Source: a virus. Taken from it: a stretch of 13,792 bases of DNA. Shown here in pieces: positions 3,089 to 13,001 of this stretch. The first letter of the stretch is position 1; each line of letters opens with the position of its first letter. The translations under genes and the position numbers were made by a program. A model generated the notes under the pieces. That model had not been told where the DNA came from. It saw only the letters and a program-made list of their open reading frames with translations, and did not search any database. The stretch is taken from the UHGV virus genome UHGV-1763989; one strand, given 5' to 3'.

Positions 3089-3277
3089 CTAGTCTCCTTT
3101 AGTGCGCAGGTGGTTTTTCCAGCGGTTTTGCGCCGCGCTGGGCTTTTTGCAAAAACCACAATCCATCATCCCGTAATATTTTATTAACCCCATTCGTCGG
3201 TTGCTGAGTCTCACCCACTGCCAGACGCCGGGACCGTTTCTACGAACTAACAGAATCTTTGCTTTACGGTTTTTCAT
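3089..3277 (-). CDS. Small basic protein (62 aa), hypothetical
   Basis: ATG start; 4-nt overlap with ParB-like gene stop; Arg/Lys-rich. Confidence 0.5.
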   Translation of the reverse strand: MKNRKAKILLVRRNGPGVWQWVRLSNRRMGLIKYYGMMDCGFCKKPSAAQNRWKNHLRTKGD

Positions 3278-4041
3278 AACCGGTGCTCCTTCAGTGCTTT
3301 TAACGCTTCAAACTGTTCAGCAGTAAGTTCAACCAGGACTTTACCACCTTCCTGGCGGGTTGCAGACCATTCACCACGGATTGCTTCCACTGCAGACCGT
3401 ACCAGTTTAGCGGGTGGACGACGCGTGACTACAGGTTCTTTATCACCTGCTTTAAACTGGCGAATGGCTGCTGATGCGCTGATTTCACCATTCTGGATCC
3501 GGCGTTTAAGTTCCAGCGGCATATCAAGAATATTCAGTTGTTCGTAAACGTGCTGAACGGTTTTACCGACCTGTGTAGCGATCTGCTCAACACTCATGCC
3601 ATATGAACGGAAACGACCGTAAATAACAGCACGTTCAACAGGGGACCACGGTTTACCTTCATTACCTTTTAACAGTGTCAGGGTCTGTTGTAGTTCGTCA
3701 CCGGACGATTCAACAACATCTACTGTCAGAATCGGCGTCCCGGCTTCAATAGCTGCCAATACGCCACGTAAACGATGCTCACCATCCTGGACATACGGAA
3801 CACCGTCAACAACCTGTACCACGATGGGTGGAACGAAATCGCCGTTGGTATAAGCCTGACGAAAGTTTTCAATGTGTGCCAGTGCTGCTTCAGTTTCCCA
3901 GTAGTTGTCGGTAAACACACCGCGTGGGTTATGTCCTGGACGAATCTTGATAATACGCGGATCAATGCGATATGCGTTACCACGTTTTACGTTGGTTTTA
4001 TCGGTATCAGACAGCTTGCGAAGGGAGTTAATGTTAGCCAT
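3274..4041 (-). CDS. ParB-like N-terminal domain protein with HTH
   Basis: ParB-box-like IRPGHNPRG and VQDGEHRLRG (cf. GERRxRA), followed by HTH-like MSVEQIATQVGKTVQHVYEQL. ATG at 4041; own promoter upstream. Confidence 0.8.
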   Translation of the reverse strand: MANINSLRKLSDTDKTNVKRGNAYRIDPRIIKIRPGHNPRGVFTDNYWETEAALAHIENFRQAYTNGDFVPPIVVQVVDGVPYVQDGEHRLRGVLAAIEAGTPILTVDVVESSGDELQQTLTLLKGNEGKPWSPVERAVIYGRFRSYGMSVEQIATQVGKTVQHVYEQLNILDMPLELKRRIQNGEISASAAIRQFKAGDKEPVVTRRPPAKLVRSAVEAIRGEWSATRQEGGKVLVELTAEQFEALKALKEHRL

Positions 4042-4047
4042 TTGTGT

Positions 4048-4076
4048 TTAGCCTCATGTGTGTTAACTGAGGCTAA
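4048..4076. promoter_or_regulatory. Perfect 9-bp inverted repeat (TTAGCCTCA-N11-TGAGGCTAA), candidate operator
   Basis: Arms 4048-4056 and 4068-4076 are exact reverse complements; lies between the predicted -10 and the ParB-like start codon and covers its GAGG ribosome-binding site. Confidence 0.5.
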
Positions 4077-4115
4077 TTATCGGGGAGGTTTGGTAATCTG
4101 TCAAGAATTATTTTA
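4076..4115 (-). promoter_or_regulatory. Sigma70-like promoter with A/T-rich upstream element (internal promoter for ParB-like gene)
   Basis: Minus strand AAAATAATTCTTGACAGATTAC: -35 TTGACA (4104..4099), 17-nt spacer, -10 GATAAT (4081..4076). The 22-nt element is identical to the copy at 11014-11035. Confidence 0.6.
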
Positions 4116-4508
4116 AGGATATGGAACCCACACAGTTAAACCAGCTTTCAACATGCGACGATGCATATCAGCAGTACCACGCCCACCGGGGAACACAACA
4201 CCGTATGTAGGACGTGGCTCACCCTCTAACATCGCCTGATTACGTTGATGACCTGCAACAGCGTTATAAGCCCCGTGCTTACCCTGTTTTACAACCGCAC
4301 CAGGTACAGTCAGATCGTCCCACGCTGCCGGGCAACTACGCACAGGAATACCGTGTAATTGCGCCCATTGCTTACACAGGTTATCAACACCTGACGCACC
4401 ACCTTCAATTAGTTCGGTAACCGGAAATTGTTTGTGAAGTAGTCCTAACGCGGAAAACACTGCTGTTCTGTCGTTAAAGTCACGACCACCTGTGACGACA
4501 ATTATCAT
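4113..4508 (-). CDS. DUF2493-like protein (SLOG/LOG-like Rossmann fold)
   Basis: IIVVTGGRDF ... EGGASGVDNL ... GIPV ... VVFPGGRGTADM matches the DUF2493/SLOG pattern (GGR near N-terminus, PGGxGT near C-terminus). ATG start; ATGA overlap with next gene. Confidence 0.75.
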   Translation of the reverse strand: MIIVVTGGRDFNDRTAVFSALGLLHKQFPVTELIEGGASGVDNLCKQWAQLHGIPVRSCPAAWDDLTVPGAVVKQGKHGAYNAVAGHQRNQAMLEGEPRPTYGVVFPGGRGTADMHRRMLKAGLTVWVPYP

Positions 4509-5185
4509 TGTTTATTAGCCTCAAATACAGCGCGAGCAAAACCACGCGGGGTTAATGAACGTAACTGTTTAGTTGTTTCAGACTTACCACCCAGATATTT
4601 CCAGCCCCAGAAGAAACCAATATTAATCGGTCCAGGACGTTTTTCAGGCATTCTGAAACCGTTACCGAACCACAGACATGTTTTCTTCGTGTATCCGTCA
4701 AACATCGGCATTTTAGGGTGAAAAGGTTTATCATCTGTTGTCATATAACCGCCATATTCCCACGGATGAAAATAAGCGTCAGGTGTCCCCATCATTTCAG
4801 GACGTGATAAAGCACCGACAGGGTTTTCGACCATCCAGGGTACATCATAACGTTCTCCAAGTTCCCGGATTAGTTTTGCGTTTGCCAGTGCATACTGTAG
4901 TTCAGCGTCATCCCGGTCATGTTGTGAACCGCTTTGAGCAAACAGGGTGCAATCCGGGAAACCAAAAATAATCGACGGTAAAGGTGTTCCCAGTATTTCC
5001 TGCTTAATTGCAAATTGTGGGTCAATCCACTGATTAACGTAATGAAGATTGGGGTGATCAGCTTTAATAAAATATTCCCCGTGATTAGCGGAATCAGCAT
5101 TAAAACAATAAACCTGATAACCATGTATCGCCCACGGTAAACCCATAATCCCGGAACCGTCGAACAATGACCAGACAATTTTCAT
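4505..5185 (-). CDS. DNA (cytosine-5)-methyltransferase-like protein, atypical and short (226 aa)
   Basis: SLFDGSG (motif I-like, res 6-12), FGFPDCTLFAQSG (motif IV-like, PDCT in place of PCQ, res 77-80), MVENPVG (motif VI-like ENV, res 120-122); spacing parallels M.HhaI-type enzymes, but no obvious target-recognition domain. Confidence 0.65.
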   Translation of the reverse strand: MKIVWSLFDGSGIMGLPWAIHGYQVYCFNADSANHGEYFIKADHPNLHYVNQWIDPQFAIKQEILGTPLPSIIFGFPDCTLFAQSGSQHDRDDAELQYALANAKLIRELGERYDVPWMVENPVGALSRPEMMGTPDAYFHPWEYGGYMTTDDKPFHPKMPMFDGYTKKTCLWFGNGFRMPEKRPGPINIGFFWGWKYLGGKSETTKQLRSLTPRGFARAVFEANKQ

Positions 5186-5618: not shown

Positions 5619-5660
5619 ACTATAGCGCACACATCTGTAATTCGTCAAGAATTATTTTAC
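5619..5660 (-). promoter_or_regulatory. Sigma70-like promoter with A/T-rich upstream element (drives small membrane protein gene)
   Basis: Minus strand AAAATAATTCTTGACGAATTAC: -35 TTGACG (5648..5643), 18-nt spacer, -10 TATAGT (5624..5619); in the 90-bp gap after the primase gene. Confidence 0.6.
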
Positions 5661-5677
5661 ACATCCTTGTGCAATGA

Positions 5678-9241: not shown

Positions 9242-10909
9242 TCAGATTAATGAACTTGCAACCCTTGCGGCGAGTTCATTAGCTTCACGAGTACGTAACC
9301 CCTGAGCGCTAAGTACATCAACACCAAACACCCTGTAAAACATCTTGTAAGCGTCATCAACGGGTATACCTTTATCACGCTGAATACCCGCCCATGTGGT
9401 GATCATACTGCGTAATTTACGCTGTGCATCGTTCATTGCCTGAATGTTTTTCATTGCACTGTAAGCTGCAATAGGGGGTGCACCAGCGTTTAACATTTGT
9501 TCTTTTACTGCAACAGGGTCACGGTCGATTATCACCACTGCCCGGCGTAATTCTTCCAATTCTTCAGGTGTCAGTTCACGTAAATTACCTTCTACACGAT
9601 CCGGGCCTGAGCGTTCGGCTTTTTCAGGAATATGACCACAATACGGGCAGCACGGAAGACCAGACGGATAAGGCTTCAGACACGGTGGAATACCATTATC
9701 AGGATCACCCTTGTTTGTACATGTTGTATTACTGTTCCCACTGCTGTTAGATGAACGACGATCACGGTCATCTAAAGACCAGTTGTAGTGCTGATCGGGA
9801 AGTGGAAAACCACGGGCCAGAAATCGACGAACATTACCGACTTTATCAATAATCAGTGCTTTTTTACCGGGTTTGAAACGCAATGGTCGACCCATCTGTT
9901 GTACAAACAAAGAGTAAGATTCTGTTGGACGGTCCATTACAGCGCATTCCATCGCCGGGCAATCGTACCCTTCACCGAATAAATCGTTGTTACATAGCAC
10001 GAGTGTTTTACGTCGTTCAAAACGTTCCAGAATATCCGCTCGTTCCTGATTGCTGTTTCGTGAGCTGATCGCCTCTGCAGGAATGCCAGCATCGCGAAAT
10101 TCTTTTGCGAGTGCTTCAGCAGAATCTACGTCACACGTAAACACAACAGTGAGTAAACCGTCTGCGTACGTTTTCCACGTACTGACGGTATCACCAACGA
10201 TGTTTGAATCTTCCATCGCTTTTTTTAACGCAGAGGGTTTGTAATCACCCGTAGTATGGGAAATCATTTCTGCAGTTAATTCCAGGTCTGTTTCAGCCAT
10301 GATCAGGCGATAATCAGCCAGGTGTTGTTGGCTGATTAACTCACGCATTGATGGACCGATGATCATCTGATCTGCGTAACCTGACGCATGACGACCCAAG
10401 CCTTTACCGTCAGCACGGATCGGTGTAGCTGTAACACCCAGACCTTTAGCGTTAGGGAATTTTTCCCGGCAGTCTCCCCACTGTGTGCCACGTACCAGGT
10501 GATGCGCTTCATCGCTGAATACAAGAGACACGTCGTTGTACCATCGTTCGTACTGTTTTGTTCTTAACGTTTGTGAACTGGTAATAACGATGTCAGCGCC
10601 GGGGGAATAGGTACTGTAACCAAGCGTTTTCATCTGCTGATTAGTTGCAAACTTAACAGTATCTTTTTGCGCTATAAATCTGTGTGGTAATCCCTGGCGA
10701 GCAACAGCCATTGCGATTTGACTAACCAGTTCTTTACGGTGTGCCTGGATGACTTTTACACCGTCGGATTTTACCAGTTCTGCAAGCGCTCGGGTCTTTC
10801 CTGCACCCGTGGGAAGTACAAGAATCACGTCATCAGCACCGTTCGACCATGCCTGGCGCACGTTGTTAACGGCATCTTGTTGATAGTGACGAAGTGGTTG
10901 TTGACTCAC
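9242..10909 (-). CDS. SF2 DEAH-box helicase with C-terminal Cys-rich extension (555 aa)
   Basis: LRHYQ, Walker A VLPTGAGKT, Walker B FSDEAHH, motif III TATP, motif VI QQMGRPLR; C-terminal CLKPYPSGLPCCPYCGH cluster. GTG start at 10909 with AAGGAAAG upstream, no in-frame ATG nearby. Confidence 0.85.
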   Translation of the reverse strand: MSQQPLRHYQQDAVNNVRQAWSNGADDVILVLPTGAGKTRALAELVKSDGVKVIQAHRKELVSQIAMAVARQGLPHRFIAQKDTVKFATNQQMKTLGYSTYSPGADIVITSSQTLRTKQYERWYNDVSLVFSDEAHHLVRGTQWGDCREKFPNAKGLGVTATPIRADGKGLGRHASGYADQMIIGPSMRELISQQHLADYRLIMAETDLELTAEMISHTTGDYKPSALKKAMEDSNIVGDTVSTWKTYADGLLTVVFTCDVDSAEALAKEFRDAGIPAEAISSRNSNQERADILERFERRKTLVLCNNDLFGEGYDCPAMECAVMDRPTESYSLFVQQMGRPLRFKPGKKALIIDKVGNVRRFLARGFPLPDQHYNWSLDDRDRRSSNSSGNSNTTCTNKGDPDNGIPPCLKPYPSGLPCCPYCGHIPEKAERSGPDRVEGNLRELTPEELEELRRAVVIIDRDPVAVKEQMLNAGAPPIAAYSAMKNIQAMNDAQRKLRSMITTWAGIQRDKGIPVDDAYKMFYRVFGVDVLSAQGLRTREANELAARVASSLI

Positions 10910-10950
10910 GTATCTTTCCTTCAGTTAATATCGAATCGTGAAAAAAGTTT

Positions 10951-10990
10951 AAAATAGTTCTTGACGTATTGCAACTTATTCCTCTAACAT
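10951..10990 (+). promoter_or_regulatory. Sigma70-like promoter (upstream member of a tandem pair for the rightward genes)
   Basis: AAAATAGTTCTTGACG: -35 TTGACG 10961-10966, 18-nt spacer, -10-like TAACAT 10985-10990. Confidence 0.5.
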
Positions 10991-11013
10991 CTGCATCAAC
11001 GAAAGGCGAGTGT

Positions 11014-11053
11014 AAAAATAATTCTTGACAGATTACACAACACCTTTTAAAGT
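11014..11053 (+). promoter_or_regulatory. Sigma70-like promoter with A/T-rich upstream element (rightward genes)
   Basis: AAAAATAATTCTTGACAGATTAC: -35 TTGACA 11025-11030, 17-nt spacer, -10-like TAAAGT 11048-11053; AAGAGGA ribosome-binding site then ATG at 11086. Confidence 0.6.
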
Positions 11054-11085
11054 TAGCGATAACCAAACAACAAGAGGAAAACGTA

Positions 11086-11856: not shown

Positions 11857-13001
11857 TGACAAGTCACGCTACCTTTAGTGCCAGTGGATCAAAACGTTGG
11901 TTAGCTTGTCCGGGTAGCGTTCAACTGTCACAGCGGATTGATTATGTAGAACCATCATCACCCAGTGCTGAAGAAGGTACAGCCGGGCACTGGGTGTTAG
12001 AACAGAAGATTAAAGGTAAACAGCCATTAATGCCGTGTATTGCTCCTAACGGTGTTCAGGTTACTGAAGACATGCACATTTACGCGGATGACTTTATAGC
12101 AGATGTTCTTTCAGTTGGTGCGAAACTTGATCCGCTGTTTTCAGAAGTTCGCATTCACATTGACTGGTTGTTACCCGGTCAGTACGGAACCTGTGATTAT
12201 CGCTGGTATGACTTTAATACTGATACGCTTTATGTATGGGATTATAAATACGGTCATGTTGCAGTTGACGCAGTTGATAACTCACAGGGGGTCTATTATG
12301 CACTGGACCAACGTTGCATCGACACTGTTAAGCGCGTTGTGTTCACAATTGTTCAGCCACGGGCTTATCACCCACTCGGACCTGTAAGACGATGGGAGTT
12401 TAACCTGGCAACATTGATGGAATGGGCTGAACGATTTAAACACGGGTTTAACGAAGCACATAAACCAGACGCACCTTTAAATGTTGGTAGTCATTGTCAT
12501 TACTGTCCGGCGCGTGGTATGTGTCCGGCGATGTATGAGAGGGTTTTAGAATTGGCTACTGTTCTTGATGCACCACCATCACTTACGCCAGAAGAAGTAG
12601 CGCGTCGTCTGGCACTTCTTGAAGAACTGTATACGCGTTCTTCTGAAGCAAAAACAGCGTTACATACTCAGGGGTTACATTTTGTTCGTATGGGTAAAGT
12701 TTTACCGGGTTTTAAACTTGCAACAAAACAAACCCGACGTCAGCTTACGGACGAAGGAAAACTGATCGGTGCTGCACCCATGTTTGGTGTAAACCCTGAA
12801 ACATTGTACGAACGTAAATTAAAACCATTGTCAACACTGGAAAAATCACTGCCTCCGGCACTTGTTGACATGTGTACGACAAAACCAGAAGGTCAGCCAG
12901 TTTTAGTACCTGACAGTGACCCGCGTAAAGGTCACAGCACACTGGCAGAATCTGTTTTTAATAAACCCGTGACGATGCCGACTGGCGCACGTCCACTTTA
13001 A
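11856..13001 (+). CDS. DUF2800-like PD-(D/E)xK nuclease (Cas4/RecB-like, Cys cluster)
   Basis: N-terminus MTSHATFSASGSKRWLACPGS typical of DUF2800; WDYKYGH nuclease core; C-terminal CHYCPARGMCPA with an N-terminal Cys suggests an Fe-S cluster. ATG overlaps upstream stop (TGATG). Confidence 0.8.
   Translation: MTSHATFSASGSKRWLACPGSVQLSQRIDYVEPSSPSAEEGTAGHWVLEQKIKGKQPLMPCIAPNGVQVTEDMHIYADDFIADVLSVGAKLDPLFSEVRIHIDWLLPGQYGTCDYRWYDFNTDTLYVWDYKYGHVAVDAVDNSQGVYYALDQRCIDTVKRVVFTIVQPRAYHPLGPVRRWEFNLATLMEWAERFKHGFNEAHKPDAPLNVGSHCHYCPARGMCPAMYERVLELATVLDAPPSLTPEEVARRLALLEELYTRSSEAKTALHTQGLHFVRMGKVLPGFKLATKQTRRQLTDEGKLIGAAPMFGVNPETLYERKLKPLSTLEKSLPPALVDMCTTKPEGQPVLVPDSDPRKGHSTLAESVFNKPVTMPTGARPL

Follow-up and report, generated by a model that had tools for sequence, protein, structure and literature searches.

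A hairpin over the ribosome-binding site of a ParB-like gene in 9NA-like siphophages, embedded in a sigma-70 promoter and predicted to mask read-through messages

The stretch of viral DNA analysed here (UHGV virus genome UHGV-1763989, 13,792 nucleotides, hereafter the window) carries a perfect 9-bp inverted repeat at positions 4048-4076, lodged between the promoter and the start codon of a ParB-like gene that is read from the minus strand. We consider it reasonably probable (about 0.6) that this repeat works at the RNA level: on messages that read through from upstream it would fold into a hairpin hiding the ParB-like gene's ribosome-binding site, while transcripts initiated at the gene's own promoter would be translated. 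Within this scheme, the anatomy, the predicted folds, the conservation with its covariation, the association of hairpin and promoter and the absence of further genomic copies are shown by the sequences, and we infer the transcription start, the existence of the read-through RNA and the effect on translation. The window comes from a 9NA-like siphophage (Nonanavirus/Sashavirus); sequence comparison gives ~96% identity to the Escherichia phages PJ16, PDP46, and BDX09P1, with the Salmonella phages Sasha, Sergei, and 9NA and several Klebsiella phages as further kin. An earlier note on this DNA had described the repeat, its position between the -10 and the start codon with an overlap of the ribosome-binding site, and a neighbouring gene for a ParB-type protein with a helix-turn-helix (HTH) domain; these descriptions are accurate, including the coordinates, the 11-nt spacer, the -10 at 4081-4076 and the start codon at 4041.

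On the plus strand the element reads TTAGCCTCA (4048-4056), tgtgtgttaac (4057-4067), and TGAGGCTAA (4068-4076), and the repeat cannot be extended, both 4047 and 4077 being T. On the minus strand it lies in the 71-nt gap that separates the stop codon of an upstream SLOG-family gene from the ParB-like ATG, which runs TAA-aataattc-TTGACA-N17-GATAAT-TAGCCTCA-gttaacacaca-TGAGGCTAA-acacaa-ATG. The features of promoter and hairpin are as follows.

4105-4114, minus strand: A/T-rich block AAAATAATTC, directly upstream of the -35 and UP element-like
4099-4104, minus strand: -35 hexamer TTGACA, invariant in alignments A1 and A3
4076-4081, minus strand: -10 hexamer GATAAT, whose last T (4076) doubles as the first base of the 5' arm
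4068-4076, minus strand: hairpin 5' arm (anti-Shine-Dalgarno), UUAGCCUCA on the sense RNA
4066-4069, minus strand: predicted transcription start of the embedded promoter, placed from the position of the -10
4057-4067, minus strand: hairpin loop, GUUAACACACA, 11 nt
4048-4056, minus strand: hairpin 3' arm, UGAGGCUAA, which holds GAGG at 4055-4052
4041-4039, minus strand: ATG start codon of the ParB-like gene

The 5' arm spans roughly promoter positions -7 to +2 and the 3' arm ends 6 nt before the ATG. The GAGG at 4055-4052, 10 nt before the ATG, is the sole Shine-Dalgarno sequence of the ParB-like gene, and a ribosome-binding site is annotated at the matching position in the records of the phages Sasha, Sergei, and Solent. 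With 11 of the 12 consensus positions, TTGACA-N17-GATAAT is the best sigma-70 match in the window; relatives have GATAAT, CATAAT, GATACT, or TACACT as the -10 at the corresponding place, and the A/T-rich block, which overlaps the SLOG stop codon (4115-4113), is invariant or nearly so across 15 related phages. Escherichia coli RNA polymerase initiates some 7 nt downstream of a -10 hexamer, and the purines A4068 and G4067, 7-9 nt past the -10, are the likeliest start sites here. The same promoter architecture recurs in these phages: the family block AAAATAATTC-TTGAC(A/G)nATT(A/G)C has four copies in the window (4104 and 5648 on the minus strand, 11025 and 10961 on the plus strand) and 11 in the PJ16 genome, each of the latter preceding a gene or gene block. 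This recurrence makes the embedded-promoter call credible, and the other promoters of the family provide internal controls for the hairpin test described below. Because the -10 lies directly against the 5' arm, transcripts from the gene's own promoter should not include that arm, and only read-through from upstream would yield an RNA able to fold the hairpin.

In fragments of read-through RNA the hairpin is present in every minimum-free-energy fold, with energies between -13.8 and -14.5 kcal/mol and z-scores of -3 to -4, and none of 200 shuffles was as stable; an RNA starting at A4068 reaches -4.8 kcal/mol (z = -0.18), with no significant structure. In the mechanism that we propose, transcripts from upstream promoters would continue across the SLOG gene and enter the ParB-like gene, within a tightly packed co-directional leftward block. 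Upstream, at 5648-5619, there is a further member of the promoter family, the genes on that side are contiguous and point in the same direction, and the terminator scan returned no candidate from the SLOG stop codon to the hairpin. On such long transcripts UUAGCCUCA (4076-4068) would pair with UGAGGCUAA (4056-4048), and the resulting hairpin, of ~-13 to -14 kcal/mol, would bury the GAGG and lead to poor ribosome initiation; a stem this strong over a Shine-Dalgarno sequence should lower initiation by orders of magnitude. As the stem lies 37 nt past the upstream stop codon, it is probably beyond the reach of the terminating ribosome, which should therefore not melt it. Transcripts from the embedded sigma-70 promoter would begin at ~4068-4067, lack the 5' arm, carry an open 27-nt leader and be translated, in such a way that the ParB-like protein (or, in some relatives, the product of an inserted small gene) would be made from the cassette promoter only, whatever the level of read-through. 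The earlier note had offered, as its second choice, that a fully transcribed repeat would form an mRNA hairpin sequestering the GAGG. The hairpin is the part of that proposal that the comparative data favour, whereas its proviso of full transcription needs amending, as both arms would be carried by read-through transcripts only.

Perfect inverted repeats are not rare in this DNA. Counting perfect 9-mers with loops of 3-20 nt, the window holds six (four distinct), against 1.16 +/- 1.3 in whole-window shuffles, with one of 300 shuffles reaching six, and an inverted repeat somewhere in the window is by itself not remarkable. Within the 86-nt intergenic segment such a repeat is found in just 0.17% of dinucleotide shuffles, and its conservation with compensatory change in relatives constitutes stronger evidence than this chance estimate. 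As to the other repeats, strong ones occur at window positions 9248-9281, 10311-10338, and 11959-11996; they comprise perfect repeats of 10 bp within the helicase and DUF2800 genes and, where the helicase gene reaches its extreme 3' end, an inverted repeat of 12 nt with one mismatch. It is together with the 4048 repeat that they exceed the shuffle expectation (6 vs 1.16).

In 15 phage records the block of homology, made of promoter, inverted repeat and leader, begins immediately past the stop codon of the upstream gene, and this upstream gene varies between phages, encoding a SLOG, an HNH endonuclease, or a NADAR protein. Downstream of the hairpin, a 231-bp gene stands between it and the ParB-like gene in PDP46, Bas82, SP-062, and KP13-27 (L002, L004, L009, and L011). 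Small genes inserted 5' of the ParB-like gene were also seen in L147, L150, and L155-L157, as one or two genes of 231-240 bp, and the inserted genes open with a shared ATGGCTAA/ATGTC start context. These exchanges indicate that the cassette sits at a mosaic junction and, since the flanking genes change while the cassette stays, that the repeat belongs to the promoter cassette rather than to the ParB-like gene itself. Across an alignment of 19 distinct sequences from close relatives, standard pairs make up 97.7% of the stem cells. Stem pair 2 is C-G in nine sequences, U-A in seven, U.G in one (phage 9NA), and C-A in two; pairs 4, 7, and 8 each show one single-sided change, all of them G.U or U.G on the sense strand, and the remaining mismatches are A-C at the loop-closing pair in two sequences. 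The observed covariation score was matched or beaten in three of 500 column shuffles, and sliding the partner column by one position lowers the pairing to 39-49%. The clearest single case opposes L157 to Sasha, which differ at two positions over 75 nt, and these two are the paired bases. Between the Escherichia/Salmonella and the Klebsiella groups, spacer, loop, and leader have accumulated many substitutions, whereas the 18 stem bases differ at the compensated pair only.

More divergent versions were obtained by collecting ParB-like homologues down to ~40% identity and reading the DNA upstream of them. In L140 (protein 78% identical) TACACT is followed by CAGCCUCAG, 10 nt, and CUGAGGCUA, a stem that has gained a G-C pair at its loop end and is shifted by one pair. 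In L142 (45%) TAGACT is followed by GUUUCUUGU, 16 nt, ACAAGAGAC, 7 nt, and AUG; L143 (45%) has the same 5' arm (GUUUCUUGU), an 18-nt loop, and the 3' arm ACAAGAGGC. L289 (~42% identical to P0018) forms GCCAUAC(U)CUC...GAGGUAUGGC, a stem of 10 bp interrupted by a single bulge; here the -10 hexamer CATACT itself serves as the 5' arm. The arms of L142, L143, and L289 differ in sequence from those of the window and the loop, 10, 11, or 12 nt long within class A (the class with the window's arms), reaches 16 and 18 nt in L142 and L143. In all four loci the Shine-Dalgarno sequence lies within the 3' arm and the hairpin is present in the predicted minimum-free-energy fold; the -10 adjoins the 5' arm in L140, L142, and L143 and is overlapped by it in L289. 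A duplex test, in which the 20 nt around the -10 were paired with the 23 nt ending at the start codon and compared with shuffles, gave p = 0.0015 for PJ16 (class A), p = 0.0006 for L140, p = 0.0012 for L289, p = 0.024 for L142, and p = 0.06 for L143. Other homologues depart from this layout. L141 (56% identical) has neither a promoter at the corresponding position nor a hairpin, its ParB-like gene starting 22 nt after the previous gene, and the more distant ParB-like homologues have other arrangements, including compact palindromes between -35 and -10. Two of these palindromes, ATATCCCT-gttt-AGGGATAT and TCCCC-aaac-GGGGA, belong to homologues P0032 and P0033 (L290/L291 ~1085-1125 and L293/L294 ~1125-1160) and look like autoregulatory operators unrelated to the 4048-4076 element. 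A scan with TAGACTGTTTCTTGT found no further class-B relatives, and a viral-contig scan with AAAATARTTCTTGACA was too unspecific, the loci that it returned (L020-L139) being unrelated.

Taken as DNA, the palindrome TTAGCCTCA-N11-TGAGGCTAA (~-7 to +22) could instead be the target of a repressor dimer that prevents initiation or promoter escape. This repressor might be the ParB-like protein (autoregulation of the KorB kind) or some other protein of phage or host. The earlier note had put this forward, as a repressor operator or a parS-like site, and the layout lends itself to it: the palindrome overlaps the transcription start position, the adjacent gene encodes a ParB-family HTH protein, hairpin and promoter co-occur, and the symmetric two-arm change from T-A to C-G keeps the palindrome. 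The outer bases TTAGC/GCTAA may also resemble the half-sites of KorB (TTTAGCSGCTAAA). We nevertheless regard an operator as unlikely. The fixed, abutting half-sites of a compact palindrome are not what is found, the arms lying 11 nt apart here and 10, 12, 16, or 18 nt apart in relatives, with altered helical phasing of the half-sites as a consequence. Full pairing of the arms requires U.G in L142 and L143, where the symmetry of the double-stranded DNA drops to 8/9 and 7/9, and a bulge in L289, and the internal single-sided changes are wobbles on the sense strand. In each version the Shine-Dalgarno sequence forms one arm and the other adjoins the -10 or extends over it, and an operator needs neither. 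A different palindrome, TTRCAC-N6-GTGTAA, holds the true operator position at other promoters of this phage, and the more distant ParB-like homologues carry their compact -35/-10 palindromes instead. The proposed operator is not supported, given the variable spacing of the arms, their U.G-only or bulged pairing in relatives, and the constant presence of the Shine-Dalgarno sequence in the 3' arm. A dispersed parS-like site is unlikely as well, since the 9-mer is not scattered through the related 57.8-kb PJ16 genome: its only exact copies there are both arms and a single further one at the Shine-Dalgarno sequence of the SLOG gene, and the matches with at most one mismatch in the window (5 vs 1.85 expected) are not significant.

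That third exact copy of the 3' arm, at window 4515-4523 on the minus strand, consists of TGAGGCTAA followed by 6 nt and the SLOG start codon (ATG at 4508); it sits inside the 3' end of a cytosine-methyltransferase gene and is present in PJ16 and absent in distant relatives. Probably it represents either a relic of recombination or a shared ribosome-binding-site cassette. A functional long-range pairing between the anti-Shine-Dalgarno arm and this copy was considered and is not supported, given the absence of the copy in distant relatives.

The hairpin might also exist as RNA and serve another end, as a processing or stability element on read-through RNA, for instance protecting the 3' end of a cleaved upstream message or offering a nuclease entry site that separates modules, with the masking of the Shine-Dalgarno sequence being incidental. 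Its stability, its conservation, and its position at a mosaic junction of exchangeable modules are all compatible with such a role, which we hold to be quite unlikely given that an element of this kind could sit anywhere in the gap, whereas in three sequence classes (A, B, and L289) the Shine-Dalgarno sequence is in the 3' arm and the 5' arm is at the -10. A 9-bp stem is, besides, short for RNase III. No Rfam family matches: over the window there was no match at gathering thresholds, and in 3900-4250 the only sub-threshold matches were to snoRNA models. An intrinsic terminator was also dismissed, since no U-tract follows the stem, which is continued by ACACAAAUG on the sense strand and UUAUCGGGG on the opposite one, and the hairpin is absent from the output of the terminator scan; the lack of a U-tract and of a place among the terminator-like sites counts equally against the processing role. 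That the complementarity has no selected function, and stems from composition or from recombination of similar ribosome-binding-site cassettes in a young and little diverged region, seems very improbable. The close relatives are indeed little diverged (mean column identity 84%), the window holds several perfect inverted repeats overall, and the TGAGGCTAA-N6-ATG cassette also precedes the SLOG gene. Chance similarity, however, agrees poorly with the compensatory double change that distinguishes the otherwise identical L157 and Sasha, with the same architecture being kept on different arms in L142, L143, and L289, with the rarity of such a repeat in shuffled intergenic segments (the 0.17% given above), and with 18 stem positions that change at a single compensated pair between Escherichia/Salmonella and Klebsiella phages whose flanks differ widely.

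Masking of the Shine-Dalgarno sequence on read-through RNA has its own difficulties, several of which concern the choice of strand. The U-A to C-G compensatory switch equally preserves a DNA palindrome, and in the close relatives four wobble cells stand against four A-C/C-A cells, a parity by which the wobbles in these phages do not single out a strand. The A-C/C-A cells are confined to both ends of the stem, and it is only these positions of change (internal vs terminal) and the distant relatives that favour the sense strand. Among the latter, class B comprises two sequences only, and their fragment-level fold z-scores are not significant. The embedded promoter is of the sigma-70 type, like the phage's others, with no evident early-to-late switch of the kind known in phage T4, and several other promoters of the family lack such a hairpin, which shows that the design is not universal. 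In the literature on 9NA-like phages we found nothing on the transcription or regulation of the hairpin region; the mentions of ParB in the BstA paper refer to an unrelated ParB-parS labelling tool. Finally, the benefit of insulation is conjecture, as is one possible need for it, namely that the phage sets, or autoregulates, the amount of ParB-like protein at that gene's own promoter.

A second promoter-embedded hairpin occurs in PJ16 outside the window, at promoter P3807 before PJ16_010 (OQ955832.1 ~3745-3790, minus strand, locus L302). There the 5' arm of a hairpin of 10 bp encloses the -10, TAGACT, and the 3' arm, AACUGGAGUU, contains GGAG (p = 0.0045). This hairpin is conserved in six phages, including SP-062, Sergei, and three Klebsiella phages (relatives L304-L308), with two compensatory pairs, one of which links a base of the -10 (TAGACT vs TAAACT) to the base after GGAGU (C vs U). 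In the duplex test, complementarity between the -10 and Shine-Dalgarno regions reached p <= 0.053 in six of ten tested PJ16 promoters of the family. This test, with its shuffles, superseded a base-pair-probability control at ten PJ16 promoters, which did not discriminate, long-range pairing with unrelated upstream sequence having inflated its values. On the basis of the two covarying conserved cases (the ParB-like cassette and P3807) and of these six promoters, we tentatively raise the possibility of a general design in 9NA-like phages, in which the -10/start sequence would double, at several internal sigma-70 promoters, as anti-Shine-Dalgarno strand for the first gene that follows. Were this doubtful generalization correct, each mosaic module would carry a portable cassette making the translation of its lead gene depend on the module's own promoter and insensitive to read-through, expression would be predictable despite module shuffling, and the regulator of each promoter would gain exclusive control.

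The genes on both sides of the cassette and the remaining promoters of the family in the window are the following.

3274-4041, minus strand: ParB-like gene, 255 aa, with a ParB N-terminal-type domain and a ParB HTH
4113-4508, minus strand: SLOG/YAcAr family gene, 131 aa, upstream of and co-directional with the ParB-like gene
4099-4114, minus strand: promoter-family upstream half, that of the embedded promoter
5643-5658, minus strand: promoter-family upstream half
11015-11030, plus strand: promoter-family upstream half
10951-10966, plus strand: promoter-family upstream half

The genes in the hairpin-bearing part of the window are nearly all on the minus strand and closely packed, and the ParB-like gene is the first gene 3' of the promoter-hairpin cassette in this phage. 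Its product matches Pfam HTH_ParB (2e-6), and the family profile matches Spo0J, ParB, Noc, and KorB structures (down to 5.5e-10), by which it is recognizable as a true ParB-family protein. Just downstream of it lies an open reading frame of 62 aa (3089-3277, minus strand), and the DNA at window 3093-3277 is ~97% identical to hypothetical genes of Stx2-converting phages and of phage RCS47, which points to recent exchange with lambdoid and P1-like phages. The four copies of the promoter family in the window include a divergent tandem pair at 10950-11060. The palindrome TTRCAC-N6-GTGTAA accompanies promoters of the AAAATAATTC-TTGAC family: in the window it occurs at 5657-5674, on both strands, immediately upstream of the -35 in the 5648-5619 promoter, and in PJ16 (OQ955832.1, locus L302) at 1499-1516, 12875-12892, and 27450-27467. 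It fills the -35/-10 spacer in three PJ16 promoters, which is the classic operator position, and its six strand-matches in 45 kb compare with 0.79 expected, none of 100 shuffles reaching six. This palindrome is a better operator candidate than the inverted repeat of the ParB-like gene.

If read-through messages are indeed masked in this way, the operon structure by itself does not tell how the ParB-like gene is expressed and RNA-seq coverage would overestimate the translatable share of the message, and both engineering and annotation would do well to handle the promoter, the hairpin, and the Shine-Dalgarno sequence together, as a single portable cassette. The 9NA-like siphophages are in current use in phage-therapy and BASEL-type collections. 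The comparison also removes from this locus a tempting and unsupported parS/operator annotation.

The cassette would join, on comparative sequence evidence only, a type of control that is already known. If so, the device of T4 and IS10 would also operate in unrelated virulent siphophages, with ordinary sigma-70 promoters inside long operons. For e (lysozyme), soc, 49, and I-TevI of T4, long transcripts of the early or middle kind sequester the Shine-Dalgarno sequence or the start codon, and transcripts initiated at a promoter lying within the hairpin region are relieved of this (PMC3014915). The parallel extends to the Shine-Dalgarno sequence in the 3' strand of the hairpin, the promoter in the DNA for the 5' strand, with its own transcripts lacking that strand and being translated (as predicted here), a masked form supplied by upstream co-directional transcription (as proposed here), and a structure conserved among related phages. 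The T4 embedded promoters, in contrast, are late ones (TATAAATA, gp55-dependent) and give temporal control, whereas here it is a near-consensus sigma-70 promoter of the phage's common family, with no evident difference in temporal class; the embedded promoter shows no sign of belonging to a later class, its AAAATAATTC-TTGAC(A/G) architecture being shared with other promoters. The present case also differs in concerning an unrelated siphovirus and a ParB-like gene as the one presumably regulated.

Two other kinds of system offer a partial likeness. As in ParB-parS and KorB-OB, an inverted repeat stands beside a ParB-family gene and overlaps its promoter; unlike in those systems, the half-sites do not abut and their 11-nt spacing is not conserved, there is no repetition elsewhere in the genome, the Shine-Dalgarno sequence always constitutes one arm, and relatives with a conserved HTH region have had their arms exchanged entirely. 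As in RNA thermometers and the expression platforms of riboswitches, a Shine-Dalgarno sequence is paired with an upstream anti-Shine-Dalgarno sequence in a short hairpin. Those elements, however, sit in the gene's own leader and open on a signal, whereas the own transcript of the ParB-like gene should lack the anti-Shine-Dalgarno arm, and the hairpin also differs from them in having no Rfam family match.

A further precedent is found among insertion sequences. Davis, Simons and Kleckner reportedly described in 1985 how IS10/Tn10 is protected from external promoters. In IS10/Tn10 (and IS50) read-through transcripts fold back and hide the transposase's ribosome-binding site, and transcripts from the element's own promoter do not. 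The phage cassette resembles IS10 in having a sigma-70-type promoter of its own, in a hairpin that is predicted to form only on transcripts starting outside the cassette, and in a presumed purpose, that of insulating a gene from upstream transcription within a portable unit. It differs in the source of the read-through, which would be the phage's own operon rather than the fortuitous outside promoters against which insertion elements guard, and in that no antisense RNA or methylation layer is evident. With these differences taken into account, an insulation of the IS10 kind fits the 4048-4076 cassette better than a temporal switch of the T4 kind.

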